Positions 2,771 to 31,334 of a stretch of 32,000 nucleotides of DNA are shown here, in pieces. The notes under the pieces are model-generated. The model had not been told where the DNA came from. It made no database searches and was given only the letters and a program-made list of their open reading frames with translations. The position numbers and the translations under genes were made by a program. The number at the start of each line of letters is the position of its first letter. The stretch's first letter is position 1. Source of the DNA: an uncultured Actinomycetes bacterium (lineage in GTDB: Bacteria; Actinomycetota; Thermoleophilia; Gaiellales; Gaiellaceae); NCBI GenBank assembly GCA_963718065.1, contig CAVQYE010000019.1, forward strand, positions 185,513 through 217,512. Reading direction: 5' to 3'.

Positions 2771-3547
2771 ATGACCTACCGCGCCAGAAACATCCTCGTC
2801 GCCGTGGCGCTCTCGCTCGTTGCCGCGCTGCTGACGACCTTCTATGTGACCAACTACAAGCGGAACGTCCAGACCGGCGAGGACAACGTGAAGGTCTTCG
2901 TCGCCGCCAAGGACGTACCGGCCGGTACCTCCGGCTCCGAGCTCGTGAGCAAGAACCTCCTCACGTCGGAAAGCGTCGCCAAGCGCACGGTGGTCCCGGG
3001 CGCGATCTCCAGTCCCGACCAGGTCCAGCGCCTCGTCCTCAACGAGCCGCTGTACGCCGGCGAGCAGGTCACCGCCCGCCGCTTCGGCAGCGTCCAGCAG
3101 CAGGGCATCCAGGCCAAGCTGAAGGGGACGCTCCGCGCCTACCAGCTCCCCGGAGACACGAACCAGCTGCTCGCAGGGACGCTCAACGATGGCGACCACG
3201 TCGACGTCGTCGTGACGATCCGGCCCGATCCCACGAAGGAGGACCGCGTAACCCGCATCGTGCTCCGGGACCTCGAGGTCCTGCGCGCACCGGTCTCCCC
3301 CGAGGTCTCGGGCAGGCTGTCCAACACGTCATCCGGCCAGGCCAACGTCCAGCTCGCCGTTCGCGATACGCAGGTGCAGAAGCTCCAGCAGGCGACGGCA
3401 GCCGGCGCACAGTCCGACTGGTCGCTCCAGCTCCGCCCGGTCGTCGATCCGGCAGACAGCCCGGAGACGCTCGAGTCGAACGACACCCTGATCAAGGACG
3501 GGCTCCGCGCGTCCGAGCTCAAGAACCTCCCGAGGAGTGGAAGATGA
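2771..3547 (+). CDS. cpaB: CpaB/RcpC-family Flp pilus assembly protein (N-terminal TM plus SAF-like domain)
   Basis: 258 aa and intact. It has a TM helix (ILVAVALSLVAALLTTFYV) and then VKVFVAAKDVPAGTSGSELVSKNLLTSESVAKRTVVPGAISSPDQV...LNEPLYAGEQVTARRFG, typical of CpaB. Its stop overlaps the next start as ATGA at 3544. Confidence 0.85.
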   Translation: MTYRARNILVAVALSLVAALLTTFYVTNYKRNVQTGEDNVKVFVAAKDVPAGTSGSELVSKNLLTSESVAKRTVVPGAISSPDQVQRLVLNEPLYAGEQVTARRFGSVQQQGIQAKLKGTLRAYQLPGDTNQLLAGTLNDGDHVDVVVTIRPDPTKEDRVTRIVLRDLEVLRAPVSPEVSGRLSNTSSGQANVQLAVRDTQVQKLQQATAAGAQSDWSLQLRPVVDPADSPETLESNDTLIKDGLRASELKNLPRSGR

Positions 3548-4753
3548 GCACCGACAATCAGACCAACGACCCGGGTCACGAGCGCGTCCGCATCTTCGTG
3601 ACGGGTGACTGCGAAGGGCTCGCGTCACTGCGCGACTCCCTCGCCGCCCATCACGAGCTCGAGCTCGTCGGTACCTCGGAGCACGTCGCCCAGGCCACCG
3701 CCACGCTCGCCGGCGGGCATCTCGACTGCGTCCTCCACGCGACGCGCATCGAGCTCGCTTCCCGCCGGCGAGATCGCGGCGATCCGCGAGCAGACGCGCG
3801 CGCCGATCTTCGTGATCGCCTCGGGCGAGTCCTCCGCGCTGCTCGAGGAGGCGCTCGAGGCCGACGTCACCGACGTCCTGCTCCTGCCGCAGCTGACGGA
3901 GAACGTCGTCTTCGCGATCCGCAAGGCCGCCAACGCGAAGCGGCGGTCCACGTGGCCAGCGGCGCGGCGCAAGCACGACGGGCGCATCGTCACCGTCTTC
4001 TCGCCGAAGGGCGGGACGGGCAAGACCGTGATCGCGACGAACCTCGCCGCCGCGTTCGCCAAGTACGAGCAGAAGCGCACGCTGCTGCTCGACCTCGACC
4101 TGCAGTTCGGCGACGCCGCGATCATGCTCGGCCTCGAGCCGGACAAGACGATCTACGACCTCGTCGTCGCTCCGGGCGAGCTCGACGCCGAGAAGCTCGC
4201 CGGCTACATCACCCGGCACCCGTGCGGGCTCGACGTCCTCCCCGCGCCGCTCCGCCCGGAGGACGCAGAGCTCGTCACGGAAGGCAAGCTCGCGCGCCTG
4301 CTCGAGGTCGCCCGCGAGCGCCTACGACGTGATCGTCGTCGACACCTCGCCGTTCTTCCACGGCCCGATGCTGGCGACGCTCGACCGCACCGACGAGCTG
4401 CTGATGGTCTGCGGGCTCGACGTGCCGACGCTGAAGAACGTCCGGCTCAGCCTGCAGACGCTCGAGCTGCTCTCGTTCCCGTCGAAGCGGATCCGCTTCG
4501 TCCTGAACCGCGCCAACTCGAAGGTCGGCCTGAAGAAGAGCGAGGTCGAGGCGGCGCTCGAAGGTGAAGATCGAGTTCGAGGTGCCGAGCGACCGGACGG
4601 TGCCGCTGTCGGTCAACCGCGGCAACCCGGCCGTCCTCTCCGACCCGGGTGCGACTTCTCGAAGGCGATCCGCGAGCTCGCCAAGAGCGCTGCAACCCGA
4701 CCGAGGACAAGCAGAAGCAGCGCAGGCGCGTCCTCTCGCTTGCGAAGGCCTGA
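3544..4753 (+). pseudogene. cpaE: CpaE/TadZ-type pilus-assembly ATPase (REC-like N-domain plus MinD/ParA-like domain), readable only across about 5 frame changes
   Basis: Pieces in successive frames are MSTDNQ...RIFVTGDCEGL...LDCVLHAT, then PAGEIAAIREQTRAPIFVIASGE...GRIVTVFSPKGGTGKTVIATNLAAAF...LLEVARER, then YDVIVVDTSPFFHGPMLATL...[23 protein letters not shown], then [28 protein letters not shown], then [12 protein letters not shown], then [18 protein letters not shown]. The junctions lie near 3750, 4320, 4560, 4648 and 4695. TGA at 4751-4753 sits 2 nt before the cpaF ATG. Confidence 0.8.
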
Positions 4754-4755
4754 CG

Positions 4756-6202
4756 ATGGGCCTCCACGACCGCCTCTCCAAGCAAACGGCGCCGACTCAG
4801 AACGGCACCGCGCTCAGCTCGCGCCGACGCAGGCGCAAGCAGGACACGGACGTCGAGGTTCGCCGGGCGGCCGATCCGTACGCGCGAGCTGAAGACGCCG
4901 GATCCACCACGCCGTGCATCGCCAAGCTCGGCCCGGAGCTCTTCAAGAGGGAGCCCGCCGAGGACCTGATGGAGCGCGTGCTCCGCGGTCGTCACCGAGC
5001 AGCTCGCGCTCGACCGGACGCCGCTGACCCGCGACGAGCGGCGGCGGATCGTCCGCGAGATCACCGACGACATCCTCGGCTACGGGCCGCTCGAGCCGCT
5101 CCTCGCGACGACTCCGTCACCGAGGTCATGGTCAACGCCTACGACCAGGTCTACGTCGAGCGCGCCGGCAAGATCGAGCAGACGGACGTCCGCTTCGTCG
5201 ACGACGCCCACCTGCTGCGGATCATCGACAAGATCGTCTCGCAGGTCGGCCGCCGCATCGACGAGTCGTCGCCGATGGTCGACGCCCGCCTCCCGGACGG
5301 CAGCCGCGTCAACGCGATCATCCCGCCGCTCGCGCTGCGCGGGCCGACGCTGACGATCCGGAAGTTCTCGCGCGACCCGTACACGATGGACGACCTGATC
5401 GCGTTCGGCTCGCTCACGGCGAAGGCCGCGCAGTTCCTCGCCGCCTGCGTCAGGGGCAAGCTGAACATCCTCATCTCCGGCGGTACCGGCACCGGCAAGA
5501 CGACGATGCTGAACGCGATGTCGGCGTTCGTCCCGGACGACGAGCGCATCGTCACGATCGAGGACGCGGCCGAGCTCCAGCTCCAGCAGGAGCACGTGAT
5601 CACGCTCGAGTCGCGCCCGCCGAACATCGAGGGCCAGGGCGAGGTGCGGATCCGCGAGCTCGTCCGGAACGCCCTGCGCATGCGCCCCGACCGGATCATC
5701 GTCGGCGAGGTCCGCGGCGCGGAGACGCTGGACATGCTCCAGGCGATGAACACCGGCCACGAGGGCTCGCTGACGACGATCCACGCGAACTCGCCGCGCG
5801 ACGCGCTCGCCCGGCTCGAGACGCTCGTGCTGACCGCCGGCGTCGAGCTGCCGCTTCGCGCGATCCGCGAGCAGATCGCCTCGCGCGTTCGACCTGCTCG
5901 TCCAGATCTCGCGCCTCGTCGACGGCTCGCGCCGCGTCACGCACATCACCGAGGTGCTCGGCATGGAGTCCGACGTGATCACGCTGCAGGACATCTTCGT
6001 CGCGAAGCCGCCGGACGAGGAGCAGGCGCCGACGTCGCGCGGCACCCGCCTGCTCGCGCCGCTCGCCTGCACCGGCCTCAAGCCGCACTTCCTCGAGAAG
6101 ATGGCGACGAACGGCGTCGTCCTGCCGCCGACGTTCTTCCGGCGGACGAGCCGAGCAGCCGCCCGACGTTCGCCGCAGCCGGCTTCGGCAGGCTACGAGT
6201 GA
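4756..6202 (+). pseudogene. cpaF: CpaF/TadA secretion ATPase, readable only across about 6 frame changes
   Basis: It carries Walker A (GGTGTGKTT), [12 protein letters not shown] and the His box [13 protein letters not shown]. Frame changes lie at 4885, 4898, 4914 (all +1), about 4987 (+1), about 5105 (-1) and 5884-5887 (+1). Bridging them restores [72 protein letters not shown] and [43 protein letters not shown]. The gene ends in the frame of ORF 5954..6202. Confidence 0.85.
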
Positions 6203-8129
6203 GGCGCGTGCTCGCTCTGCAACCGGCGGCGCTGCTCGCGCTCGCCGCGGTCGCCGCCGCGGCGGGCCGCCGCGGCGGCGGCGCGGAGTCCATCTGCGCC
6301 GTCGACACGACCGGCTATCCCGACGTCCGCGTCTCCGGTCGTCACGCGTCCGCCGTCGTCGACCACCGCCCGCGCTCACCGAGAACGGCCGGCCGGTGTC
6401 GCGGCGCTCGAGACGCAGAACCTCGGCCGCGCGAAGAGCGTCGTGCTCGCGATCGACCGTTCGCAGTCGATGACGGGCCAGCCGATCGCGCGACGCGATC
6501 GCCGCCGCGCGGGCGTTCGTCGCCGGCGAAGGCCGACGGCCGATCGGGTCGCGATCGTCGCCTTCGGCCACACGCGCCGTCGCGCTGACCGGCTTCTCGG
6601 CCTCGACCATCGACGCCGACACCGCGCTGCGCTCCGGCCGTCGACGTCGACGCGACAGCCGGCACCGCGCTCTACGACGCCGTCGATCCTCGCCGCCCGC
6701 AGCTCTGCGCGCCGAGCCGCTGCCGGGCCGGGTCGCTGATCGTCGCTCACCGACGGGCACGACGTCTCGAGCAACGCCACGCTCGAGGACGCCGATCGCG
6801 ACGCGCGCGCGCAGCACGGCGTCGCCGTCTACCCCGTCGGCGATCGAGGCGCCCAGCTTCGACGCCGCGCCGCTCCAGCGTCTCGCCGCGTCGACCGGCG
6901 GCACGCTACCACGCGGCACGCTCGACGAGCGCGCCTCGCCGGCGATCTACGCCGCGCATCGCGGACGAGCTCGCACGCACCTGGCGCGTCGCGTACCTGA
7001 CCGCCGCCCGCCCGGGCGACGCTCTGCGGCTCCGGCACGCGTGCCCGGCACCGGCTCCGCGGCTGCATCCGTCGCGCTGCCCGCGCGGTCGCAACTCGGC
7101 GCGGCGCCGGCTGCCGAGCCGTCGCGCCTGCTTCCGGCTGCGCTCTACGACGGCGCCGGCACGTTCGTGCTCGGACTCGCGGTCGCGCTCCTCGATCCTG
7201 CTCGCGTACTGCGTTCGCTCCTCGCCGCGCGGGAGGGCCGCGGCTCACGCGCCGCCTGGCGCCGCACCTCGCAGGGATCGCGAAGGCGCGAAGCGCAAGC
7301 GCCAGGCGCGACGAGCGGCTCGCCGGCTTGCCGCAACATCCTCGAGGCGACCGAGCAGCCTTCGGCGCACCTGAAGCAGTGGCACGCGGTCCAGCGCCTG
7401 CTCGAGCGCGCCGACCTGCCGCTGAAGACGGTCGAGCTCCTCTACATCGCCGTCGGCGTCGGGCTTCGTCTCGGCATCCTCGTCGCCGTGCTGGCGTCGC
7501 CGCCGCTGATCGTGCTCGTCGCGCTTCTTCGTCGGCGGCTCGCTCCCGTTCCTCTTCGCGACCTTCAAGGCGACGCGCCGGCTGACGCCGTTCGAGAACC
7601 AGCTGCCCGACCTGCTGATCACGATCGCCGCGTCGCTCAAGGCGGGCCACAGCTTCCGCCAGGGCATCCAGACCGTCGTCGACGAAGGCCCGCACGCCGG
7701 CGGCGAAGGAGTTCAAGCGCGTGCTCACCGAGACGCGCCTCGGCCGTCCGATGGACGACGCGCTCGAGCGACATGGCCGACGCGCGTCGGCTCGAAGAAC
7801 CTCGACGTTCGTCGTCACCGCCGTCACGATCCAGCGCCAGGTCGGCGGCTCGCTCGCCGGGCTCTTCGACATGGTCGCCGAGGCCGTCCGCCAGCGGCAG
7901 CAGTTCGCCCGCAAGATCAAGGGCCTGACCGCGATGGGCCGCATGTCCGCCTACGTGCTCGTCGGCCTGCCGTTCTTCATCGCGCTCGCGCTGACGCTCA
8001 TGAACCGCGAGTACATGGCGCCGCTCTACCACACCTCGACCGGCCACAAGCTGATCATCGGTCGGCGCTCGTGATGATGGCGCTTCGGCAGCGTCCTCCT
8101 CAAGCAAGATCGTCTCCTTCAGGGGGTGA
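6199..8129 (+). pseudogene. tadB: Fusion of an N-terminal vWA domain (MIDAS DxSxS) with a TadB-type (T2SS-F family) platform protein; extremely fragmented (my hand count is about 30-40 frame changes)
   Basis: GTG at 6199 overlaps the cpaF stop (GTGA). vWA fragments are scattered over three frames: [139 protein letters not shown] and IADELARTWRVAYLTAARPGDALRL. TadB fragments are HLKQWHAVQRLLERADLPLKTVELLYIAVGVGL, FFVGGSLPFLFATFKATRRLTPFENQLPDLLITIAASLKAGHSFRQGIQTVVDEGP, AAKEFKRVLTETRLGRPMDDALE, RVGSKNLD and FVVTAVTIQRQVGGSLAGLFDMVAEAVRQRQQFARKIKGLTAMGRMSAYVLVGLPFFIALALTLMNREYMAPLYHTSTGHKLII. The likely stop is TGA at 8127-8129. Confidence 0.75.
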
Positions 8130-10821: not shown

Positions 10822-10904
10822 GCGGATGTGGCGGAATTGGTAGACGCGCACGGTTCAGGTCCGTGTGGGGGCAACCCGTGGAGGTTCAAGTCCTCTCATC
10901 CGCA
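10822..10904 (+). tRNA. tRNA-Leu (anticodon CAG), type II with a long variable arm; CCA not encoded
   Basis: The cloverleaf was folded by hand. The acceptor GCGGATG pairs with CATCCGC. The D-arm is GCG-GAATTGGTAGA-CGC. The anticodon stem CACGG/CCGTG encloses the loop TTCAGGT, giving anticodon CAG. The variable arm is TGGGGGCAACCCGT and the T-arm is GGAGG-TTCAAGT-CCTCT. The discriminator is A at 10904. Confidence 0.9.
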
Positions 10905-10987
10905 TAGCCGTTTTTGAGCGGGAACCGGGAACACTCCGGGAACAAACGGATGAGTGGCGGCGCTCTGCCGCCCGGCCGCGATTTCTG

Positions 10988-11368
10988 TCAGGGCTTCCGG
11001 GCTCGGATGGCCGTGTTCGCCGCTCGCCGATCTCCACGAGATCGTAGGGGCTTGGATGGTCCACATGGTCGTACTCGGCTGTGTATTCGAGTGGCAGCCG
11101 GTAGATGGATTCCTGCGCCATCCGCACGTTGAATTGCAGCGACTGCACTACAGACACTGAGTCGTCGAGCCCGGCTTCGTCGAGGACGGCGCGGACTTCC
11201 TTCTCGAAGGCTCGACGACTCCGATTCGCGAGCTACGACGCCGGCAGTGCGAGTTTCAATCTCGTTGGTCAGCGCGGTGATCTCTTGCAGTTTGGCGTTG
11301 CGTTCGGCTTCGTACCCGTCGGCGAGGTCGGTCAGTTGGTCAACTGGACCGCGCGATATCGTCAGCAT
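10988..11368 (-). pseudogene. Orphan hypothetical gene with a frame change near 11205-11225; 3' end uncertain
   Basis: ORF 10988..11368(-) begins MLTISRGPVDQLTDLADGYEAERNAKLQEITALTNEIETRTAGVVA with unbiased composition and then turns Arg-rich. The sensible continuation AFEKEVRAVLDEAGLDDSVSVVQSLQFNVRMAQESIYRLPLEYTAEYDHVDHPSPYDLVEIGE lies in the frame of ORF 10855..11157(-), which then runs nonsensically into the tRNA. Confidence 0.35.
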
Positions 11369-11750
11369 GTCGTTGGGCTAGCAGTGCAGTCTGGCTGCTC
11401 ACCGGGAAGAAGATCCAAAGCCGTCCAATACGTCGGCGTGTATCAAGAAGGGTGTTGCGCACATCTCCGGCCTCGCGCCGCAGGCCTTCGTAGTCGAAGC
11501 CAAGCTCGGAGGGCCGGTACTTCGAGAACAACGCTTCGGCGGCGGTAATGCAGGCACTGAGTCCCTCTTCGGCGAAAGTGATGGCTTCTGTCATCTTGTC
11601 GCGACGCTTCTCTTTGCGTTCGTAGCTCGTGGTGACCACTGCGGCAGAAGCCGCACCCGCAAGGAGACCGAAGACACCAGTCGTAACCGCGACGGCGATC
11701 GCCGCCCAGGCTGGCAATTCCGTTGCGGCGACGATTCCGGTCACTCCCAT
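11340..11750 (-). CDS. Hypothetical membrane-anchored protein (136 aa)
   Basis: It has an N-terminal TM segment (LPAWAAIAVAVTTGVFGLLAGAASAAVV) followed by a soluble part of mixed composition (KMTEAITFAEEGLSACITAAEALFSKYRPSELGFDYEGLRREAGDVRNTLL). I recognise no family. It may be continuous with the next gene. Confidence 0.45.
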   Translation of the reverse strand: MGVTGIVAATELPAWAAIAVAVTTGVFGLLAGAASAAVVTTSYERKEKRRDKMTEAITFAEEGLSACITAAEALFSKYRPSELGFDYEGLRREAGDVRNTLLDTRRRIGRLWIFFPVSSQTALLAQRHADDIARSS

Positions 11751-11809
11751 GGAGAACGGTTACTTACTCCGCGTTTGTGCAGAAGGCAAGTATCGGTCTC
11801 GACCACGCT

Positions 11810-12109
11810 TCAGTATCTGGCTGCCCGGGCGTCGTAGCGATCGAACGCCGCGCGCAGATGGTCGTCTGTCCGCTTGAGCCAGCGCGCATACGTGTCTTCG
11901 AGCTGTGTCACGGACGCGCCCATGATCGTCGCCAAGTGCCATAGGTGGACACCATCCTCGATCGCAAAGCTATGCCGCATGTCCACGATGCGTCGATGGT
12001 CGATCCCCGCGGCCCGGAGCGCGGGCGTCCACACACGGTGCCGGACCTTCTCGGCGTCGATGTAGCCTCCGCGCGCGGCAGGGAACAGGATCGGCGTGTC
12101 GAGTGTCAT
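11810..12109 (-). pseudogene. C-terminal fragment of a tyrosine recombinase / phage-type integrase (N-terminal ~2/3 missing)
   Basis: The 99-aa product is TPILFPAARGGYIDAEKVRHRVWTPALRAAGIDHRRIVDMRHSFAIEDGVHLWHLATIMGASVTQLEDTYARW. It has the catalytic-domain box II pattern (H-x-x-R-H ... H/G-x-x-x-x-T-x-x-x-Y). The core-binding domain and the first catalytic Arg region are absent. Confidence 0.7.
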
Positions 12110-12220
12110 GGTGAGCCCTTCGCTGTCCCTGGTCTAGACCAGCACGTGTACGTTTCGCAAGGGTCTGGCGCCGGCCCCGATGGTCGCTAGCGACGACGAG
12201 GAGCCCTGCCATGGTGCCTG

Positions 12221-12708
12221 TTAGGGCTGTGTGGGCGTCACCGTCTCACCGAGCGCCGACCTTGGGGTGTCACTCCAGTCGAACGTTGCTGCGGCCGGCG
12301 GTGGAGCAGCGGAACCGGCTTGTGCGATTGCGCTCGCCTGCAGGCTGGTTGCCGAGGAGGCGTCCTTGAGGGCCGTCGGCGGCTTGGTCCCCGTCGACCT
12401 CAGTGAGACAAGACTGGTCAGAAGACCGAACCAGAACGGCGCGCCGAGCATCACCATGAGTCCGGTCAGGATCCAACCCCGAGCATGCCCCATTGGGCCG
12501 ATGTCCAGTTGAGCGGGGATCGGTTCTTGTTCCACGCATCCTTGGATGCGTTGTCCCAACCGACGGGGAGACTGAGCTCTTTCAGGCTGTCGGTCGTCGC
12601 GGCGACGCTTGTCAGATCCTTGGGCTCGCCGCTATCGGCGACGCCGGACGCGGCTGTCGCGACCGCTTGGCGCGTGAATGGCGATCGTTCCCGCCGCAGC
12701 CGCTCCAA
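12221..12708 (-). pseudogene. Orphan membrane protein with a frame change near 12480
   Basis: ORF 12466..12708(-) ends ...LSLPVGWDNASKDAWNKNRSPLNWTSAQWGMLGVGS*. The TM helix continues in ORF 12221..12559(-) as GWILTGLMVMLGAPFWFGLLTSLVSLRSTG.... The junction is in a G-run (ctcggggttgg). Confidence 0.4.
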
Positions 12709-12782
12709 GCCTGCTACGGCTCACTCTCCACGGCTGCGGCGGAGACAACCTCTACTCGGTCAAACACGACGGGCGAGGACGG

Positions 12783-13214
12783 CTACTTGCGCAGGACCTT
12801 GCAGAAATAGCCTTTCGAGTAGTAGTTCGATCTACCGCTCCCGTCGGTGAAGTGATTGAACGTCTCCACCCTCAGCGAGCCACTGTCGAGGACGCCTGTG
12901 ACGATCGCGACCTTGAAGGCGAACTTGTACTGGGCACTGAAAGCGACAGCTGCGCTTGAGCTGACGTCGGCGGCATAGGCGAGCCCCGGCACCTTCCCCC
13001 AGTCGCATGGCGTGGGGGTGCAGGCGCCGAACGCCTGCACGGTGATCGAGGAGCCTGAGGCAGCGATCACGATCTTCACCAGGTTCCGGGTGGCACCATC
13101 GCAAGCGTTCCAGGTGCCGACCAACGCGGCCTGTCCCACGACCGCGGCAGCCTTCGCTTCGGCTGCTTTCTGGGCCAGGTCTGACGGTGCTTTGAATTCA
13201 TGCTTCGCGGGCAT
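12783..13214 (-). CDS. Hypothetical 143-aa protein, apparently beta-rich, with 4 Cys; intact
   Basis: ATG at 13214 is preceded by AGGGAGTGAGAA. The product is MPAKHEFKAPSDLAQKAAEAKAAAVVGQAALVGTWNACDGATRNLVKIVIAASGSSITVQAFGACTPTPCDWGKVPGLAYA...GSLRVETFNHFTDGSGRSNYYSKGYFCKVLRK. Its composition is unbiased, unlike the spurious ORFs around it. Confidence 0.6.
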   Translation of the reverse strand: MPAKHEFKAPSDLAQKAAEAKAAAVVGQAALVGTWNACDGATRNLVKIVIAASGSSITVQAFGACTPTPCDWGKVPGLAYAADVSSSAAVAFSAQYKFAFKVAIVTGVLDSGSLRVETFNHFTDGSGRSNYYSKGYFCKVLRK

Positions 13215-13510
13215 TTCTCACTCCCTAATCGGCTGTTCCGCTCCGGAATCCGTTCTCGGTTTCCGGAACCTTCGAGCTCACGAAGATCAGAATCACCCTC
13301 CTCTCCCAGCGGCGTGGCCGGTAGCCGACGCACGTTGTGGTGGGCCGCGAAAGAGCTTGCGCTTGTGGCAGCACAAGCATGGCTTCGACGGCCGCGCACG
13401 CCCGTTCCGAGCAGAAGCGGGGCTGACCCAACGTGCGGCAGCGACCTCGCATCCGACATAGAAGTCTCTTGGACTTGGACTAGAGCTAGCCGCTTACTAA
13501 GCGCAATACC

Positions 13511-13539
13511 AAGCTATGTCCGCGGACACCAACAGTCAA
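13511..13539 (-). promoter_or_regulatory. Candidate sigma-70/SigA-type promoter (-35 TTGACT, 17-nt spacer, -10 TAGCTT), with the palindrome CGCTTA-C-TAAGCG (13491-13503) just downstream
   Basis: The minus strand reads caagaCTTGACTgttggtgtccgcggacaTAGCTTggtattgCGCTTAgTAAGCGgc. It points toward the 143-aa gene about 290 nt away. This is a motif match only. Confidence 0.25.
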
Positions 13540-13578
13540 GTCTTGCTTTGCCGAATGGCGACAGCGTGTTGTCGCTCC

Positions 13579-13594
13579 ATGAGAGGACTTGAAC
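13579..13594 (-). repeat. 16-nt inverted copy of the tRNA-Leu segment 10884-10899 (GTTCAAGTCCTCTCAT)
   Basis: The plus strand at 13579-13594 is atgagaggacttgaac, the exact reverse complement of tRNA positions 10884-10899. The flanking bases do not complete a tRNA: there is no matching 5' T-stem and the acceptor differs. Confidence 0.6.
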
Positions 13595-13874
13595 GCCTGT
13601 CCTGACAGCTGAGGTCACCGCGGGGCGTATCTCGAGCCTCGTCTTTGTGGTCGGTGCACAGGGAGAGTGAACTCGGGTACGTCGGGGTGCGCATAGCCGT
13701 TTTCTGGCGATGGAACGGACGAGACGTGTGTCCCTGCGCGCACCGTAGTTCGCCGACGCGGCCAAGGCGGACACCGAGGTCACGCTCGCGAACTAGCGCT
13801 AACGGACAACCGGCACCGGCCGGGGAGCCTGTCCCTCCCCGACCCGTGCGGGCCTCGCTCGGCGTGAGCGCCGC

Positions 13875-16044: not shown

Positions 16045-17167
<1,123 letters not shown>

Positions 17168-17181
<14 letters not shown>

Positions 17182-17636
17182 CGCGTTGCTCCGCGACGTG
17201 CCCGTGTTCCGCGGCCTGGCGGACGACCAGCTGACGCTGATTGCCGGCTGCGGCTCGAATGTCCACTTCGAAGAGGACACCGTCCTCTTCCGCGAAGGCG
17301 ACCAGGCGGACGCCTTCTATCTTGTCCGGCAAGGTGCGGTCGCGCTCGAGACCTTCGCGCCCGTGCCGGGGAGCGATGACGATCGAGACGCTCGAGGCCG
17401 GTGAGGTCGTCGGCTGGTCGTGGCTCTTCCCGCCCTACCGCTGGCACTTCGACGCGCGGGCGCTGACGCCGATACGCGCGACGATGTTCGACGGCGCGTG
17501 CCTGCGCGGAAAGTGCGAGACGGACACGGCGCTGGGCTACGAGCTGATGTCCCGCTTCGCACAGATCCTGATCGAACGGCTGCAGTGGACGCGCCTCCGG
17601 CTCCTCGACGTCTATGGCGATGGCCGTTCACGCTGA
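17168..17636 (+). pseudogene. Cyclic-nucleotide-binding (Crp/CAP effector-type) domain protein embedded in the hydrogenase operon; single frame change near 17366-17374
   Basis: The first half, [68 protein letters not shown], lies in ORF 17150..17404. The second half of the same beta-barrel, [71 protein letters not shown], lies in ORF 17241..17636. The gene overlaps both neighbours. Confidence 0.75.
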
Positions 17637-18447
17637 GCCTCTTCTGGCGGAGGCGCCCCGGCCGTTCCGGGTCCTCAGCCGGCGACTCGAGACCTACGAC
17701 ACGTGGACACTCGAGCTCGAGCCGGTCGACGGAGCGCCGCTCGTCCCGCAACCGGGCCAGTTCACGATGCTCTACGCGTTCGGCATCGGCGAGGTCCCGA
17801 TCTCCGTCTCCGAGATCGGCGGCGGCAAGCTCGTCCACACGGTTCGCGCCGTCGGCGCCGTCACCGAGGCGATCTGCGCTGCTCACCCGGGAGTCACGCT
17901 CGGCGTGCGCGGCCCGTTCGGCAACGCGTGGCCGGTCGCAGAGGCAGCCGGTGGCGACCTCGTCGTGGTCGCCGGCGGTATCGGCCTCGCCCCGCTCCGC
18001 CCGGCGATCCGCCACGCGATCGCGAACAGGCCGGAGTACGGGCAGGTGACGCTCCTCTACGGCAGCCGCACGCCGCGCGACCTGCTCTACCGGCGGGAGC
18101 TCGATCGCCTGTCCGAGATCGCCGTCGACATCACGGTCGACACCGCCGACACGGACTGGCGCGGCAAGGTCGGCGTCGTGCCGAAGCTGATCGCCGGCGC
18201 GGACTTCGATCCTGCGAAGACCACCGCGCTCGTCTGCGGCCCGGAGATCATGATGCACTTCGCCGCGCTGGCGCTCCTCGAGCGCGGCGTGCCGGCCGAG
18301 CGGATCTACGCCTCGATGGAGCGGGACATGCGCTGCGGCGTCGGCCACTGCGGTCACTGCCAGCTCGGGCCGACGCTGATCTGCCGCGACGGCCCCGTCT
18401 ACCGCTGGAGCGAGCTGGAGCCCCTGCTCGCGGTGAGGGAGCTGTGA
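17614..18447 (+). CDS. hyhG: FAD/NAD(P)-binding plus 2Fe-2S oxidoreductase subunit (sulfhydrogenase gamma / AsrB-like)
   Basis: 277 aa and intact. The ferredoxin-reductase-type fold is indicated by [20 protein letters not shown]...[17 protein letters not shown]...LLYGSRTP. The C-terminal Cys cluster is [20 protein letters not shown]. Confidence 0.85.
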
Positions 18448-19211
18448 GCGCGCCCCCCAAGCCGACCCTGGCGGTATGGAAGTTCGCCTCCTGCGACGGC
18501 TGCCAGCTCTCCCTCCTCGACTGCGAGGACGAATTGCTGCAGCTCGCGGGTGCGGTCGAGATCGCCTACTTCGTCGAGGCGAGGCGCGCGACCGCCGAGG
18601 GGCCGTACGACCTGTCGCTCGTCGAGGGGTCGGTGACGACGGAGCACGACATCGAGCGGATCAAGGAGGTCCGGCGCGTCTCGAAGAAGCTCGTCACGAT
18701 CGGCGCCTGCGCGACCGCCGGCGGCATCCAGGCGCTGCGCAACAGCGCCGACGTCGCCGAGCTCACCTCGCTCGTCTACGCGTCACCCGAGTACATCTCG
18801 ACGCTCGCCACCTCGACGCCGATCTCCGCTCACGTGCCGGTCGACTTCGAGCTGCACGGCTGCCCGATCGACAAGCGCCAGCTGCTCGAGGTGCTGACGG
18901 CGTTCCTCCACGGCCGCCGGCCGAACATCCCCTCGACGAGCGTCTGCACGGAGTGCAAGAGGCGCGGCCTCGTCTGCGTGATGGTCGCGCACGGGACGCC
19001 GTGCCTCGGTCCGGCCACGCATGCCGGCTGCGGCGCACTCTGCCCCTCCTACCACCGCGGCTGCTACGGCTGCTTCGGGCCGATGGAGACCCCCAACACG
19101 GCGTCGCTGACGAAGCAGCTGCGCGTGCTCGGCATGGACGAGCGCAACGTCGATCGGGTCTTCCGCACGTTCAACGTCGAGGCATTCGAGGAGGCGCGGG
19201 CCAATGGCTGA
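18444..19211 (+). CDS. hyhS: [NiFe]-hydrogenase small (delta-type) subunit, group 3
   Basis: GTG at 18444 overlaps the hyhG stop (GTGA). The product [32 protein letters not shown]...[15 protein letters not shown]...[10 protein letters not shown]...[12 protein letters not shown]...[27 protein letters not shown] carries the FeS-cluster Cys patterns of F420/NAD-type small subunits. Confidence 0.85.
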
Positions 19212-20496
19212 GCGGCGCACGATCCAAACCGACTACCTCGCGCGGGTCGAGGGCGAGGGCGCGATGACGATCCGCCTCCACGACGGCGAGGTCGAGCACG
19301 TCGAGCTGCGCATCTTCGAGCCGCCGCGGTTCTTCGAGGCGCTGCTGCGCGGCCGCTCCTTCCTCGAGGCGCCGGACATCACCGCCCGGATCTGCGGCAT
19401 CTGCCCCGTCGCGTACCAGATGAGCGCTGTGCAGGCGATGGAGGACGTCTGCGGGGTCGTCGTGCCGGAGCCCCTGCAGCTGCTGCGGCGGCTCCTCTAC
19501 TGCGGCGAGTGGATCGAGAGCCACGCGCTTCACGTCTACATGCTTCACGCGCCCGACTTTCTCGGCTACGAAAGCGCGATCGAGCTCGCGCAGGACGCGC
19601 CGGCGGCTGTCGAGCGCGGCCTCGCGCTGAAGAAGACGGGCAACCAGGTGATGACGCTCGTCGGCGGCCGGGAGGTGCACCCGATCAACGTCCGCGTCGG
19701 CGGGTTCTACCGCGCGCCGACGCGCCGCGAGTTGGGCACCCTCGTCGAGCCGCTCGAGCGGGCCCGCGAGGCGGCGCTCGAGACGGTGCGCTGGACGGCG
19801 GGCTTCGAGTTCCCCGATCGCCAGGTCGAGTGCGAGCTCGTCGCGATCTCCCACCCCGGCGACTACGCGATCGAGCGCGGGCGGGTCGTCTCCGACCGCG
19901 GCCTCGACATCGCGGTCTCCGAGTACGACCAGCACTTCGTCGAGGAGCACGTCGAGCGCTCCAACGCGCTCCAGTCGCACCGCGCCGACGGCGGCACGTA
20001 CCTCTGCGGCCCGCTCGCGCGCTTCGCGGTCAACAGGGAGCAGTTGACGCCGCTCTGCCTGGACGCGGCGCGTGAGGCCGGTCTCGACGGGCCGTGCCGC
20101 AACCCGTTCCAGAGCATCGTCGTCCGCAGCATCGAGCTGCTCTATGCCTGCGACGAGGCGCTGCGGCTGATCGCCGCCTACGAGGAGCCGGACGCCCCGG
20201 CCGTGCCGGTCGAGCCGCGGGCAGGCGTCGGGTTCGGCGTCACCGAGGCGCCACGCGGGCTCTGCTACCACCGCTACGAGCTCGACGACGAGGGGACGAT
20301 CCTCGACGCGAAGATCGTGCCGCCGACCTCCCAGAACCAGCTCGCGATCGAGGACGATCTGCGCGCCGTCGTCGGCCGGTACTCGACCCTCGGCGACGAG
20401 GAGCTGCAGATTCTCTCCGAGCAGACGATCCGCAACTACGACCCGTGCATCTCGTGCGCCACCCACTTCCTGACGCTCGAGGTCGAACGCCGGTGA
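19204..20496 (+). CDS. hyhL: [NiFe]-hydrogenase large subunit, group 3b-like
   Basis: 430 aa and intact. It has RVEGEG near the N-terminus, the N-terminal Ni-Fe ligand motif [10 protein letters not shown], and the C-terminal motif DPCISCATH followed by a short tail for protease processing. The operon context (hyhB/hyhG) argues for group 3b. Confidence 0.9.
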
Positions 20497-27369: not shown

Positions 27370-29796
27370 GTGTCCGTGCGCAGGGTCGTCCTCGTGCTTG
27401 CGGCCCTGGCCGCTGTCGCCACCCTCGGCGGTTCGAGCGGTGCGATAGCCCATGCGGCCGGCTCGGTCGAGGTCGTCGTGACGCTGAAGGCGCCGCCGCT
27501 GGCGCAGGTTCCGCGCAGCACCGCACGCCTGGATCTCGACTCGGCCGCGAGCAAGGCCTACCTCGCCGGGCTCGAGCGGCAGCAGAACGCGGTCGCGTCG
27601 CGAATCGTCGCCGCGATCCCCGGCGCCCGTCCCCGCTGGCGCTACGGCGTGACGCTGAACGGGCTCGCGATCGTCGTCCCAAGCCGGCAGGTGGCAAAGC
27701 TCGAGCACGTCGCCGGCGTCGACCACGTCTGGCCGACGGCGACGTATCACCTCGCTCGCACCACGGTGGGCACGGCGGCGGCGATCGGCCCGGCCGTCGA
27801 CGCGATCGGCGCCTCCGCACTCTGGGGTCCGACCTTCGCCTCGGCTGGGAACGGGGTGAAGATCGCGATCATCGACGACGGGCTCGACCAGAGCCATCCC
27901 TTCTTCAACCCGAGCGGCTTCACGATGCCGGCCGGGTATCCGAAGGGGAACACCGCGTACACGACGGCCAAGGTGATCGTCGCGCGCGCGTTCCCGCCGC
28001 CGAGCCCGAAGTACGTGGACGCCAACAAGCCCTTCGACGCCAAGAACTCGTTCCACGCGACGCACGTCGCAGGCATCGCCGCCGGCGACCGCGGCACGCG
28101 TTCGCCGCAGGGCGCGATCTCGGGCGTGGCGCCGATGGCCTATCTCGGCAACTACAAGGCCCTGACGATCCCGACACCCGACTTCGGGCTGGACGGCAAT
28201 GCGCCGGAGCTCGCGAAGGCGATCGACCAGGCGGTGCTCGACGGCATGGACGTGATCAACATGTCCCTCGGCGAGCCGGAGATCGAGCCGTCGCGCGATC
28301 TCGTCGTCAAGGCGATCCAGGGTGCGACGGCGGCCGGCGTGGTGGCGGCGATTGCGGCGGGGAACGACTTCAACGACTTCGGCTACGGCTCCGTCGGCTC
28401 GCCCGGAAGCGCCGCGGCCGCGATCACGGCCGGCGCCTCGACCGGCACCAACGCGATGGCCTACTTCTCGTCGTCGGGACCGACCCCGCTCTCGCTCCGC
28501 CTGAAGCCCGACGTGACCGCGCCCGGGGCATCGATCCTCTCGTCGGTCCCCGACGGGGAGTACTCGGAGCTCTCCGGGACGAGCATGGCGTCGCCGCACG
28601 TCGCCGGCGCCGTCGCGTTGCTGGTCCAGCGCCATCCGACCTGGACGCCCGAGCAGATCAAGTCGGCGCTCGCCCAGAGTGCCGCCGTGCTCGGCGTGCC
28701 GGTGATGCGGCAGGGCGGCGGCCTGATCGACCTCCGCCAGGCCGACACGCCCCTCCTCTTCGCCTCCCCCACCTCGCTCTCGTTCGGCGAGCTGCATCCG
28801 GGCGCGCCTGCCGTCACGCAGACGATCCAGCTCGCCGACGCCGGCGGCGGCGCCGGTGCGTGGACGGCGACCGTCGAGGTTCGCGACGGCCAGGGCTCTC
28901 AGGTGCTCGCGTCGCCACCCGTCGTCACCGTGCCGGGATCGCTGCAGGTGAGCGCCACGGTTCCGGCCGGGCTTCCCGAGGGCGATCACGCCGGCTACAT
29001 CGTCCTGCGAAAGGACGCCGTCACGCGGCGGATTCCGTACTGGTTCACGGTCAGCGTGCCCCGCCTCGCCGACGAGCCTCACGTGACTCTTCGTCGCGCC
29101 GGCACCTACTCGGGCACGACGCGGGGCAAGCTCTCGCTCGTCTCCGCGTACCGCTATCCGACCGATCCCGCGGGCGCGGGCGTGACAGCCGCCATGCCCG
29201 GGCCCGAGCAGGCGTACCGCGTCACGATCCCGGCCGGCATCGCGAACTTCGGCGCAGTCGTCCTCTCGGGCACGGCCGAGGCGCGCATCGTCCTCGCCGG
29301 CAACGAGACACGCCTCGCCGGGTACGCCGCACTCCCGCTCTATCTCAACCCGTACACCGATCGCTACGGCGAGCACGTCCCCGCCGTGGGCGTAGCGGTG
29401 CCCGCGCCGGGTGCGTACGACATCGTGCTCGACACGCACGCTGCCGCGAAGGCCGGCGCCTACTCGTTCCACTACTGGGTGAACGACACCACGCCGCCGG
29501 CGATCCGCGTCCTCACCGCGAAGGTCGCTGTCGGCAAGACACTCGCGATCGCGCTCACCGACACGGGCGCCGGGGTCGATCCCGGCTCGATCGTCGTGCG
29601 CATCGACGGGGCGAAGCGCACGTATCGGTTCTCGCGCGCCGCCGGGCGCATCAACGTCTCGCTCGGCAGCCTCGGGCGCGGCCGCCACAAGCTGGTCGTC
29701 ACGGCCGCCGACTGGCAGGAGACGAAGAACAACGAGAACCAGTCGCGGATCCTGCCGAACACCCGCACGCTGACGACGAGCTTCGTCGTCCGCTAG
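27370..29796 (+). CDS. Secreted subtilisin-like serine peptidase (S8 family) with a large C-terminal extension
   Basis: 808 aa and intact, with a GTG start. The signal peptide is VRRVVLVLAALAAVATLGGSSGAIAHA. The catalytic triad contexts are VKIAIIDDGLD (Asp), HATHVAGIAAG (His), AAGNDF (oxyanion Asn) and SGTSMASPHVAGAVALL (Ser). Confidence 0.9.
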   Translation: MSVRRVVLVLAALAAVATLGGSSGAIAHAAGSVEVVVTLKAPPLAQVPRSTARLDLDSAASKAYLAGLERQQNAVASRIVAAIPGARPRWRYGVTLNGLAIVVPSRQVAKLEHVAGVDHVWPTATYHLARTTVGTAAAIGPAVDAIGASALWGPTFASAGNGVKIAIIDDGLDQSHPFFNPSGFTMPAGYPKGNTAYTTAKVIVARAFPPPSPKYVDANKPFDAKNSFHATHVAGIAAGDRGTRSPQGAISGVAPMAYLGNYKALTIPTPDFGLDGNAPELAKAIDQAVLDGMDVINMSLGEPEIEPSRDLVVKAIQGATAAGVVAAIAAGNDFNDFGYGSVGSPGSAAAAITAGASTGTNAMAYFSSSGPTPLSLRLKPDVTAPGASILSSVPDGEYSELSGTSMASPHVAGAVALLVQRHPTWTPEQIKSALAQSAAVLGVPVMRQGGGLIDLRQADTPLLFASPTSLSFGELHPGAPAVTQTIQLADAGGGAGAWTATVEVRDGQGSQVLASPPVVTVPGSLQVSATVPAGLPEGDHAGYIVLRKDAVTRRIPYWFTVSVPRLADEPHVTLRRAGTYSGTTRGKLSLVSAYRYPTDPAGAGVTAAMPGPEQAYRVTIPAGIANFGAVVLSGTAEARIVLAGNETRLAGYAALPLYLNPYTDRYGEHVPAVGVAVPAPGAYDIVLDTHAAAKAGAYSFHYWVNDTTPPAIRVLTAKVAVGKTLAIALTDTGAGVDPGSIVVRIDGAKRTYRFSRAAGRINVSLGSLGRGRHKLVVTAADWQETKNNENQSRILPNTRTLTTSFVVR

Positions 29797-29807: not shown

Positions 29808-30035
29808 CTACGTCTTCCGGTCGGGCTCGATCGTCGGCAGGTTCTCGAGGTCCCGCTGCACGGCCGCCTCGAACTCGTCGCTCTCGGTCTTCAGCAGCTT
29901 CAGCTGCGACTTGCGCTTCGCCCGGTCGCGGCGGCGACGCGCCTCGTTGCCGAACCTCGGCGCGAGCCGTGGCCATTCCGCACCGATCACGACCGTGGCG
30001 GCGGCGAGCAGCAAGAAGACTGAGAAGAGGCCCAT
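29808..30035 (-). CDS. Small single-TM protein with a basic/acidic tail (75 aa)
   Basis: The product is MGLFSVFLLLAAATVVIGAEW followed by RRRRDRAKRKSQLKLLKTESDEFEAAVQRDLENL. It is convergent with the S8 gene (11-nt gap) and has no clear RBS. Confidence 0.4.
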   Translation of the reverse strand: MGLFSVFLLLAAATVVIGAEWPRLAPRFGNEARRRRDRAKRKSQLKLLKTESDEFEAAVQRDLENLPTIEPDRKT

Positions 30036-30077
30036 GGCCCGATTCTAGCCCCGCAGAAACGGTGGTACCCTCGTCCG

Positions 30078-31334
30078 GTGCGGATCGCCCTCCGCTTTGC
30101 GCTCGGCCTGGCCGCGCTGGCGTTTCCCGGGCACGCGCTGGCAGGTGAGCAGACGCTCGTCTTCCGGACCGCACCGATCACGATCGGCGCCTACGAGGTC
30201 GGCCAGGGCGTCCAGGTGATCGACCATCCGCAGGTCGACGGCTACGTCGTCGGCATGAGCGCAGACGTCGTCGACGCCGACGGCAACCTCGTGCCGATTC
30301 GCCGGGTGATGCTCCACCACGTCGTCTTCGCGAAGATCGGCACGCCCGACCTCACGTGCCCGAGCGCCGCCACGCAGCGCTTCTACGCCAGCGGCGAGGA
30401 GCGCATGCAGCTCGCCTTGCCGCCGGGTTACGGCTATCCGAATCGCGGCCTCGACAACTGGGGCCTCCTCTACATGCTGATGAACCACCGCCCGGTCGCG
30501 GACACGGTGCGGGTGCAGTACACGGTGCGCTACGTCACCGACGAGCCGCTGCAGGCGGTGAAGCCCGTCTGGCTCGACGAGCACAACTGCTCCGCGGACC
30601 CGATCTTCAACGTCCCCGGTAACGGCAAGGTGTTCTCGACGTGGACGAAGACAACCGACTGGGTCGCTCCGGAGGACGGGGTCGTCGTCGCCCTCGGCGG
30701 CCACCTGCACGGCGGCGGCCTGCGGCTCGAGCTCGCGGACACGACCTGCGGCCGGGCGCTGTACACCTCCGAGCCCACGTGGGGGTTGCCGCTGATCAAG
30801 CCGGTGATGCACGAGCCAGGGCCGCTGCACATGAGCACCTTCACGAGCACAGAAGGGTTGCCGGTCGCTGCCGGAGCCCGGCTGCGGCTCTCGGCGGTCT
30901 ACGACAACAGCCTGCCCCACGTCCGCGCGATGGGGATCATGCTCGCCTACTTCGCGCCGAAGCCGGTCATTGCCTGCGGGCCTCTGCCGGTTCTCCAGCC
31001 GGATCCCGCGAGCCGGCCGGGGACGCCGCCGCGCATCAAGCTGCCGCTGTTGCGCGAGCCGAAGGGGCCCTTCGCCGGCCTGCAAGCCACGTTCGTCAGC
31101 GACTACGCGTACGGGCGCCAGCGGGTCACGGTCAAGAAGGGCTCGACCTTCACGTGGCGCTTCGCGGGGCCCGCATTGCACGACGTCACGCTCGCGAGCG
31201 GACCGGTCGGGTTCGCGTCTCCGTGGTCACCGGCCGGCTCGACGTTCTCCTTCAGGTTCACGAGAGCCGGCACCTACCGGCTGTTCTGCTCCCTCCACCC
31301 CGCGCGCATGACCCAGGTCGTGATCGTGCGCTAA
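30078..31334 (+). CDS. Secreted two-part copper protein: an N-terminal PHM/DBH-like (copper type II monooxygenase-like) region fused to a C-terminal type-1 cupredoxin domain
   Basis: 418 aa and intact. The signal peptide is MRIALRFALGLAALAFPGHALA. Candidate CuH ligands are H80/H81 (VMLHHVVF) and H137 (LYMLMNHRP). Candidate CuM ligands are H209/H211 (GGHLHGGG) and M285 or M288 (HVRAMGIMLAYF). The spacings of 56, 72 and about 75 aa compare with 64, 70 and 70 in PHM as I recall it. The C-terminal cupredoxin has H368 (PALHDV) and C404-x2-H407-x3-M411 (YRLFCSLHPARMTQVVIV). Confidence 0.7.
   Translation: MRIALRFALGLAALAFPGHALAGEQTLVFRTAPITIGAYEVGQGVQVIDHPQVDGYVVGMSADVVDADGNLVPIRRVMLHHVVFAKIGTPDLTCPSAATQRFYASGEERMQLALPPGYGYPNRGLDNWGLLYMLMNHRPVADTVRVQYTVRYVTDEPLQAVKPVWLDEHNCSADPIFNVPGNGKVFSTWTKTTDWVAPEDGVVVALGGHLHGGGLRLELADTTCGRALYTSEPTWGLPLIKPVMHEPGPLHMSTFTSTEGLPVAAGARLRLSAVYDNSLPHVRAMGIMLAYFAPKPVIACGPLPVLQPDPASRPGTPPRIKLPLLREPKGPFAGLQATFVSDYAYGRQRVTVKKGSTFTWRFAGPALHDVTLASGPVGFASPWSPAGSTFSFRFTRAGTYRLFCSLHPARMTQVVIVR

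Follow-up and report, generated by a model that had tools for sequence, protein, structure and literature searches.

The window analyzed here, a stretch of 32,000 nucleotides from contig CAVQYE010000019.1 of an uncultured member of the Gaiellaceae (Actinomycetota, Thermoleophilia), encodes at positions 30078–31334 of the forward strand a protein of 418 amino acids (aa) with a predicted signal peptide, a core of two predicted subdomains and a C-terminal cupredoxin. By its sequence, this protein is a member of the SURNod19 family (Stress up-regulated Nod 19, PF07712) with a type-1 cupredoxin domain, and the fold predicted for its core is that of the copper monooxygenases PHM (peptidylglycine alpha-hydroxylating monooxygenase) and DBH (dopamine beta-monooxygenase). 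The gene and the recognizable parts of its product are as follows:

30078–31334 (+): whole gene for a secreted protein with a SURNod19 (PHM-like) core and a cupredoxin; GTG start, TGA stop, 418 aa
30078–30143 (+): predicted Sec-type signal peptide, residues 1–22, read from the sequence, with the predicted cut after ALA; residues 2–15 form a helix in the model
30147–30572 (+): predicted N-terminal beta-sandwich subdomain, residues ~24–165, equivalent to the CuH subdomain of PHM (Foldseek, hhalign, and the Pfam SURNod19 stretch 26–86)
30315–30320 (+): H80-H81 pair within VMLHHVVF, which aligns with PHM H107/H108; putative ligands of the H-site copper
30474–30488 (+): strand M133-L-M135-N-H137, in which M133 is homologous to PHM H172 and to the plant Nod19 His according to the alignments
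30573–30977 (+): predicted C-terminal beta-sandwich subdomain, residues ~166–300, equivalent to the CuM subdomain of PHM (Foldseek, hhalign)
30702–30710 (+): H209-x-H211 (GGHLHGGG), putative M-site ligands, aligned with PHM H242/H244
30930–30932 (+): M285 (within RAMGIM), counterpart of PHM M314 via plant Nod19 and putative methionine of the M-site
30978–31088 (+): Pro-rich interdomain linker, residues ~301–337 (~35 residues); pLDDT 57–60 at residues 331–350
31089–31331 (+): type-1 (blue) cupredoxin, amicyanin-like, with H368 at 31179–31181 and C404, H407 and M411 within 31287–31310

The GC content at the third codon positions (GC3) of this gene is 0.93, similar to that of the flanking genes in a window of 70% GC, which is the value expected of a real gene; the long open reading frame (ORF) on the opposite strand (30045–31181) is a high-GC shadow of it. 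The N-terminal sequence (MRIALRFALGLAALAFPGHALA|GEQ) has the typical form of a Sec signal, in which A20 is invariant and A22 is conserved in at least 90% of 52 full-length homologues (see below). In the mature protein, a core of ~277 aa is followed by the Pro-rich linker and then by the C-terminal cupredoxin. No Shine-Dalgarno-like sequence was detected ahead of the GTG start (window positions 30066–30080), and a sigma-70 consensus scan gave no match. A TANNNT-type hexamer (TACCCT, 30066–30071) ends 6 nucleotides 5' of the start codon, an arrangement typical of leaderless actinobacterial mRNAs.

An initial annotation of the gene, made from the sequence with no database searches, had proposed a PHM/DBH-type monooxygenase fused to a cupredoxin. 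By indexing, all the candidate ligands that it listed are found where it had placed them (H80/H81 in RVMLHHVVF, H137 in LYMLMNHRP, H209/H211 in ALGGHLHGGG, M285/M288 in RAMGIMLAYF, and the cupredoxin ligands H368, C404, H407 and M411 in YRLFCSLHPARM), and the spacings that it gave are correct (56 residues from 81 to 137, 72 from 137 to 209 and 74 from 211 to 285). The PHM residues that it had given for comparison (H107/H108/H172/H242/H244/M314), as well as their contexts VHHMLLFGC, LQVHYG, HTHHLG and EMCNLYIMYY, agree with the PDB sequence of PHM.

The assignment to SURNod19, a family that is present in plants, fungi and bacteria, is based on a Pfam score of 27.1 bits (E 2.3e-6), which exceeds the cut-off of 25, residues 26–86 being the best matching stretch; ten distant homologues all score above the cut-off as well (27.7–40.4 bits), and distant homologues match profile positions 255–375 within the C-terminal subdomain. 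A large protein database contains at least 610 homologues of the window protein; the best 120 of these, which were inspected, are all full length (~420–430 aa, 57–85% identity), all have a precomputed PF07712 match, and carry labels such as 'hypothetical', 'plastocyanin', 'Stress up-regulated Nod 19' and 'cupredoxin domain-containing protein [Gaiellaceae]'. In the alignment of the close family, which consists of 52 full-length homologues with 57–85% identity to the window protein, the invariant residues are H80, H81, M133, M135, H137, H209, H211 and M285, four cysteines (C94, C171, C224 and C300) and the cupredoxin ligands H368, C404, H407 and M411; M288 is merely near-invariant (at least 90%).

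When one genome per species was scanned, the full-length fusion turned up in the genomes of at least 154 species, almost all of them Thermoleophilia (Gaiellaceae/Gaiellales and Solirubrobacterales), the cultured Svornostia abyssi J379 among them. A Solirubrobacterales-type copy with 44% identity is also located on a contig labelled 'MAG: Bifidobacterium breve' (locus L081; MAG, metagenome-assembled genome), and single Gemmatimonadales and Acidimicrobiia MAG contigs likewise carry the fusion; all these copies are more likely to result from mis-binning or mislabelling than to reflect a genuine presence of the gene in these groups.

The core domain itself was traced in an exhaustive search with a hidden Markov model and counted as clusters at 50% identity, which gave 1723 clusters at E <= 1e-3 and 228 clusters at E <= 1e-30. 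About one third of the 71 best whole-domain representatives have a C-terminal cupredoxin with the C-x2-H-P-x2-M motif, about one third are stand-alone proteins of 300–350 aa, and about a dozen have N-terminal extensions of 270–400 residues. In the extended homologues P0239, P0249, P0265 and P0207, ~4 predicted transmembrane helices and a His-rich low-complexity linker of 100–200 residues come before the core and a short His tail comes after it; the N-terminal part of these proteins falls within no Pfam family. The transmembrane helices, His-rich linkers and His tails fit metal binding or handling, and the sequences suggest that these four proteins are membrane-anchored, metal-scavenging versions of the family. 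Heme-binding CxxCH motifs, considered as another feature of the extended homologues, were discarded, given that a single isolated case was found.

Conservation across the wide family was counted over 72 divergent bacterial representatives of the 50%-identity clusters. H80 is retained in all 72 of these sequences, and H81, H209, H211, M285 and E108 are retained in 71 each, followed by M135 (62) and H137 (43, with Met in another 17); position 133 is occupied by Met in 38 representatives, by His in 12, by Asp in 12 and by Glu in 9. All 25 representatives that have a fused cupredoxin, and the window protein as the 26th, show the complete pattern M133-x-M135-x-H137, whereas these positions vary among the unfused ones, which indicates that the H-type site and the cupredoxin co-vary.

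The full-length AlphaFold2 model (pLDDT 86.3, pTM 0.84) is all-beta except for the signal helix, and the model of the core only (residues 24–300) is of similar quality (pLDDT 83, pTM 0.82). In the Foldseek comparison of the full-length model with the PDB, ranks 1–27 are occupied by PHM structures, save for DBH (4zel_A) at rank 13 (E from 3e-8, prob 1.0, ~308 columns); the next matches are copper nitrite reductases with extra domains and, for the C-terminal domain, amicyanins. For the core model, the top 26 matches consist exclusively of PHM and DBH chains (E 2e-8 to 3e-6, prob 1.0, TMq 0.45–0.61), and viral double jelly-rolls appear after a clear gap (E 6e-5, TM ~0.34). The PHM/DBH-type fold of two beta-sandwiches, which had been put forward in the initial annotation, is thus the predicted fold of the core. 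The best TM values of the core model were obtained with chain A of 4zel (0.61) and with 6ala (0.60 and 0.58), as compared with 0.45–0.54 for open PHM structures and 0.52 for chain B of DBH. Both 4zel_A and 6ala are closed conformers, in which the C-subdomain is turned by ~18 degrees towards the N-subdomain (PMC6123673). Because the models fit closed PHM/DBH conformers best, the expected distance of ~11 A between the copper sites may not hold for the window protein.

The correspondence of individual residues was derived from hhalign profile-profile comparisons between a bacterial profile of 72 sequences and a PHM profile of 110 sequences. Interpretable alignments with PHM came only from diverse profiles split by subdomain: single-sequence or shallow-profile alignments yielded nothing useful, the global hhalign modes failed, and a bacterial profile supplemented with plant sequences gave no better comparison. 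The N-terminal subdomains align with P = 1.5e-4 (prob 52%, 103 columns), with H80/H81 on H107/H108, and the C-terminal subdomains align with P = 0.031, with H209/H211 exactly on H242/H244; in the cross-domain controls, P is 0.66 for the C-terminal subdomain of the bacterial proteins against PHM's N-terminal subdomain and 0.0096 for the reverse combination. The full-length alignment pairs VMLHHVVF with TAHHMLLYGC and LPPGYGY with LPKGVGF. PHM H172 aligns with M133 and not with H137, in a part of the alignment that is of low confidence.

The plant members of the family provide a bridge between the two profiles. With a partial Medicago ruthenica SURNod19 sequence (PMC9203031 supplement) as the query, we collected 120 plant Nod19/MtN19 proteins (P0391–P0510). 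The bacterial profile aligns with 99 plant Nod19 sequences with an hhalign probability of 99.5% (E 3.7e-22, 277 columns), such that HH falls on HH, GGHLHGGG on AHQHSGG and RAMGIM on GVMGLF, and the plant His aligns with M133, with a conserved Trp (W128) as the anchor. The putative ligands of the plant proteins, including the bean protein PHAVU_006G127300, are conserved almost without exception (HH in 99/99, His in 98/99, HxH in 99/99 and Met in 98/99). The best local alignment between the plant profile and PHM is non-significant (P = 0.61) and was therefore used for local placement of the Met only; it puts the plant Met on PHM M314 and, given that M285 falls on the plant Met, M285 is equivalent to M314 by transitivity. 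Plant Nod19 proteins also contain a Cys-rich insertion (GCTECKCDLYNVT...GGLLCCYD) after the third His and before the rest of the N-subdomain; this insertion is absent in the bacterial proteins.

Among the PHM-type ligands proposed at the outset, the HH and HxH pairs are upheld by the alignment with PHM and by the conservation in bacteria and plants, and M285 finds its PHM counterpart through plant Nod19. H137, which had been put forward as the third CuH ligand, is probably not that ligand, the homologous position being M133, which aligns with both PHM H172 and the plant Nod19 His; given that the equivalent of H172 is a Met, the H-type site is likely to be His2 plus Met/His rather than His3. 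The predicted M-type site is accordingly canonical in its residues, and the predicted H-type site keeps the HH pair, with a third strand rich in Met and His. From the fold and these equivalences, we infer that SURNod19 is a distant branch of the fold of the PHM/DBH non-coupled binuclear copper monooxygenases.

The C-terminal domain matches the Pfam family Copper-bind (PF00127) with 22.7 bits against a cut-off of 21.2 over residues 344–417 and, with its H-C-H-M ligands invariant, is the complete type-1 cupredoxin that the initial annotation had recognized. Searches of PDB sequences, with the single sequence or with a profile, retrieved only amicyanins and other cupredoxins, for residues 340–416; the amicyanin matches have E 4e-6, with 27–34% identity over the C-terminal 80 residues, and a chain of the cupredoxin-fused nitrite-reductase type (9cck) is among both the PDB sequence matches and the Foldseek matches. 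Amicyanins reach TMt 0.64–0.66 in the Foldseek comparison with the full-length model. Three of the ligands, H368, C404 and H407, match amicyanin H53, C92 and H95, and M411 lies one residue beyond amicyanin M98 along the loop. NCBIfam yields sub-threshold matches only, which reflect similarity to amicyanin and halocyanin; with 30.9 bits against the cut-off of 110.2 for the amicyanin equivalog TIGR02657, the domain is amicyanin-like but not an amicyanin.

On the strength of the sequence comparisons and the models, we consider it rather probable that the product of this gene is a secreted oxidase or hydroxylase that activates O2, contains three coppers and has its electron donor tethered to it. 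The core would consist of two beta-sandwich subdomains with one mononuclear copper site apiece, namely, an M-type site formed by H209, H211 and M285, and an H-type site formed by H80, H81 and the Met/His face of strand 133–137 (M133, M135 and H137). In PHM, the M site is responsible for O2 activation and the attack on the substrate C-H bond, and the H site stores the second electron and hands it on. In the window protein, the amicyanin-like cupredoxin, tethered by the Pro-rich linker, would most likely take electrons one at a time from an external donor and pass them to the H-type site; this protein-borne electron supply would stand in for ascorbate, which the animal enzymes use and bacteria generally lack. 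The net reaction would be RH + O2 + 2e- + 2H+ -> ROH + H2O on an extracellular substrate, for which a peptide or protein is weakly suggested.

The proposal of a protein-borne electron supply stems from the domain architecture, from the way in which the M-x-M-x-H pattern co-varies with the fusion, and from the precedent of tethered donors in copper nitrite reductases; cupredoxin or cytochrome donors attached in this manner are an established solution in the three-domain enzymes of that group. The analysis establishes the gene, its conservation, the fold predicted for it, its family, the conservation of the ligands and the fusion architecture, and from there we infer copper occupancy, O2 chemistry, the direction of electron flow and the kind of substrate. 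The interpretation in the initial annotation is supported with respect to the predicted PHM/DBH fold, the HH, HxH and Met ligands and the cupredoxin, and is corrected with respect to the family, which is SURNod19 (see below), and to the equivalent of H172, which is M133 rather than H137. The broader scenario, under which the whole SURNod19 family would be an ancient branch of PHM/DBH monooxygenases and the Thermoleophilia version a self-sufficient, three-copper, cupredoxin-fed and ascorbate-free enzyme, is a serious but tentative possibility.

The following two genes precede the fusion gene in the window:

27370–29796 (+): S8 (subtilisin-family) peptidase of 808 aa with a long C-terminal extension (Pfam PF00082, E 7e-52)
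29808–30035 (−): ORF of 75 aa that begins with a single hydrophobic helix and has a tail rich in charged residues (GC3 0.93)

The 75-aa ORF, for which no Pfam match was found, starts 42 bp from the divergent start of the fusion gene; it has a BLAST match in 67 of the 84 related loci (47–77% identity) and is called as a gene in L001–L003. The trio of S8 peptidase, 75-aa ORF and fusion gene is present in 64 of the 84 related loci, among them every one of the 40 Gaiellales-type loci whose flanks are complete, and is absent in 12 Solirubrobacterales-type loci, which have no neighbour in common; several related genomes (e.g., L002) contain a second S8 paralogue nearby. Genes located 3–5 kb downstream are also kept in 32–38 of the 40 Gaiellales-type loci, so that the conservation of the S8 gene in Gaiellales may be plain regional synteny, and this neighbour was therefore not used as evidence of a peptide substrate. 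An ORF with a GerMN domain lies downstream of the fusion gene, and none of the genes nearby is related to copper. The stand-alone homologues have no conserved partner in 80 metagenome loci, the sole recurrent neighbour being an SGNH/GDSL-like ORF (13 of the 80 loci).

The oxygenase reading draws wholly on predicted structure and conservation, and several results weigh against it. The initial annotation had suggested a search with the Pfam families Cu2_monooxygen (PF01082) and Cu2_monoox_C (PF03712), neither of which matches even at E <= 10; given the failure of this sequence test, the protein is not classed in the Pfam families of PHM and DBH but in SURNod19, a family that the annotation had not mentioned. 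Nor was PHM reached by the profile search of PDB sequences, and the full-length hhalign comparison with PHM gave P = 1.3e-3 and a probability of 19%, so that the link to PHM rests mainly on the predicted structure. The third position of the H-type site is non-canonical, with Met133 in the window protein and Met, His, Asp or Glu across the family. The crystal structures of the closed conformers that the models resemble most, 4zel_A and 6ala, hold a single copper (PMC6123673). Finally, no conserved gene for an electron donor or for a substrate was found beside the fusion gene, and no cupredoxin ORF was found in the flanks of the stand-alone homologues in the 80 metagenome loci.

Copper handling or resistance, with binding, buffering or oxidation of extracellular Cu(I) at the His/Met sites and the cupredoxin in the manner of CopI, CopC, PcoC or cuprous oxidases, appears unlikely. 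Cupredoxin-type proteins do occur in copper-resistance systems, the strand M133-L-M135-N-H137 is rich in Met and His, with ligands that vary across the family, and some homologues combine a membrane anchor with long His-rich linkers and His tails; however, the most deeply conserved residues are the catalytic PHM set in a two-domain cleft fold and not a generic Met-rich motif, the closest structural neighbours are enzymes, and no cop/cus/cso or metal-regulator genes are present in the window or in the related loci. The regulation of the plant proteins can be invoked on both sides. Bean Nod19 (PHAVU_006G127300) is an experimentally validated target of miR398b, and its transcripts fall in copper deficiency and generally rise with excess copper, although not in leaves (PMC3882225), which speaks for copper handling; but miR398 also targets Cu/Zn superoxide dismutase (PMC3882225), and control of this type is expected of a copper-consuming enzyme such as the latter.

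The opposite direction of electron flow, with the core oxidizing a substrate without oxygen insertion, or producing H2O2, and the cupredoxin accepting electrons for the respiratory chain, seems quite unlikely. Amicyanin accepts electrons from methylamine dehydrogenase, and amicyanins, which are physiological acceptors, are the closest solved relatives of the cupredoxin domain; furthermore, no reductant system is encoded nearby. Nevertheless, the similarity to amicyanin is silent on the direction of electron transfer, His2Met sites of the PHM, DBH and TBM type activate O2 and in so doing consume electrons (PMC12164859), and a soluble secreted protein without a membrane anchor would be ill-placed to feed a respiratory chain. 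Very improbable, in our assessment, is a core that would share only the scaffold, that is, a non-redox binding or hydrolytic module similar to PNGase F, with the His and Met residues playing a structural role. PHM and PNGase F belong to one fold group (SCOP/ECOD), PNGase F-II (4r4z) is among the Foldseek matches of the core model, and the S8 peptidase is a conserved neighbour; yet 4r4z appears at rank 49 (E 1.4e-3, TMq 0.47), far below the 26 PHM/DBH chains, for which reason a PNGase F-type function was rejected, the near-universal HH, HxH and Met residues of bacteria and plants would be difficult to account for in a protein that binds no metal, and the fusion to a redox-only type-1 cupredoxin with all four ligands invariant argues for redox chemistry.

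Several other features were noted elsewhere in the window. A tRNA gene at 10822–10904 (Rfam, 53.9 bits) borders a stretch of ~3 kb (10900–13870) with a GC content of 61–63%, compared with ~70%, and no ORF of at least 150 aa in any frame, which may be what is left of an integrated element, or some other stretch without coding function. The genes at 16045–20496 (+) encode a 4Fe-4S dicluster protein, an NAD-binding/FeS oxidoreductase subunit and a protein similar to the large subunit of NiFe-hydrogenase, a redox cluster that looks like a soluble hydrogenase module; they are followed by genes for a DUF6390 protein and a hybrid PAS histidine kinase with a receiver domain. Tad/Flp-type pilus assembly genes, including those for an RcpC/CpaB-like protein and a T2SSE ATPase, are located at 2771–6588 (+), and a HEAT-repeat protein is encoded in another part of the window.

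To our knowledge, no non-coupled binuclear copper monooxygenases other than PHM, DBH and TBM have been well studied, and these three are regarded as enzymes of eukaryotes that are driven by ascorbate and serve the synthesis of peptide hormones and catecholamines. If the assignment proposed here is true, this enzyme class would be widened considerably by a large sister family from prokaryotes and plants that shares its fold and almost all of its ligands: the new branch would cover at least 1700 bacterial clusters (50% identity), fungal effector candidates and plant Nod19/MtN19. A plant nodulin family that has been an orphan for ~30 years, and which serves as a marker of stress and nodulation, would gain a chemistry, and the targeting of Nod19 by miR398 would be explained. 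The cupredoxin fusion would offer a spectroscopically visible one-electron entry point tethered to an H-type site, so that the route of the second electron to the O2-activating copper, and the place of a closed conformer on this pathway, if it has one, could become directly measurable, and the open-versus-closed mechanism that is debated for PHM/DBH could be addressed in a secreted bacterial protein of ~400 residues.

The function of the SURNod19 domain was termed unknown or elusive in papers from 2022 and 2023 (PMC9632046, PMC10326430), and a paper from July 2026 treats SURNod19 phylogenetically only and assigns it no biochemical function (PMC13355928); our literature searches found no paper that assigns a biochemical function to the family. 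PAM has been reported missing from land plants (PMC6529398). Searches for Nod19 or PF07712 together with PHM, DBH or monooxygenase, and for bacterial PHM-like enzymes, returned nothing relevant; a match for 'PHM' and cupredoxin (PMC9240420) concerns plasmids named pHM. In agreement with the initial annotation, which knew of no characterized bacterial enzyme with this combination of core and cupredoxin, the literature searches found no characterized enzyme of this kind. With regard to the novelty of the SURNod19–PHM fold link, domain databases may already list the relationship.

Compared with PHM (the core of PAM; 1PHM, 1OPM, 1SDW) and DBH (4ZEL), the window protein has the same predicted core of two beta-sandwiches (E ~2e-8, TMq up to 0.61), in which the HH pair in the N-subdomain and HxH and Met in the C-subdomain follow in the same order and with similar spacing; it is also secreted, as PHM and DBH are secreted or luminal. 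There are also differences: the identity is ~11%, with no PF01082 or PF03712 match, the position of the third CuH histidine of PHM (H172) holds Met133, the predicted domain arrangement resembles that of the closed conformers, and the protein is bacterial and, unlike PHM/DBH, lacks a DOMON or lyase domain and possesses a C-terminal type-1 cupredoxin. Plant Nod19/MtN19 proteins belong to the same family (PF07712) and share with the window protein the HH/HxH/Met signature and the signal peptide, but have a His at the position of M133, a large Cys-rich insertion between the subdomains and, instead of a cupredoxin, a C-terminal hydrophobic helix. The BURP-domain peptide cyclases (AhyBURP, 8SY3) are plant copper enzymes that act on peptides and contain two copper centres similar to the His2Met site of PHM (PMC12164859). 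They are not among the Foldseek neighbours and represent a different family and fold, such that their likeness to PHM is confined to the active site.

The cupredoxin domain is closest to amicyanin and other small cupredoxins (1AAC, 2QDV and Nitrosopumilus 5FC9), with the identity over the C-terminal 80 residues given above; the ligand loop is C-x2-H-x3-M in the window protein and C-x2-H-x2-M in amicyanin, and the domain is fused, whereas amicyanin is a free carrier. The covalent attachment has its counterpart in the three-domain copper nitrite reductases with a tethered cupredoxin or cytochrome c domain, such as the cupredoxin-fused 9CCK. Although their core (a trimer of the multicopper-oxidase type, as opposed to a PHM-like monomer) and chemistry are unrelated to those proposed for the window protein, the design principle is the same, namely, a copper enzyme with a covalently attached one-electron donor.

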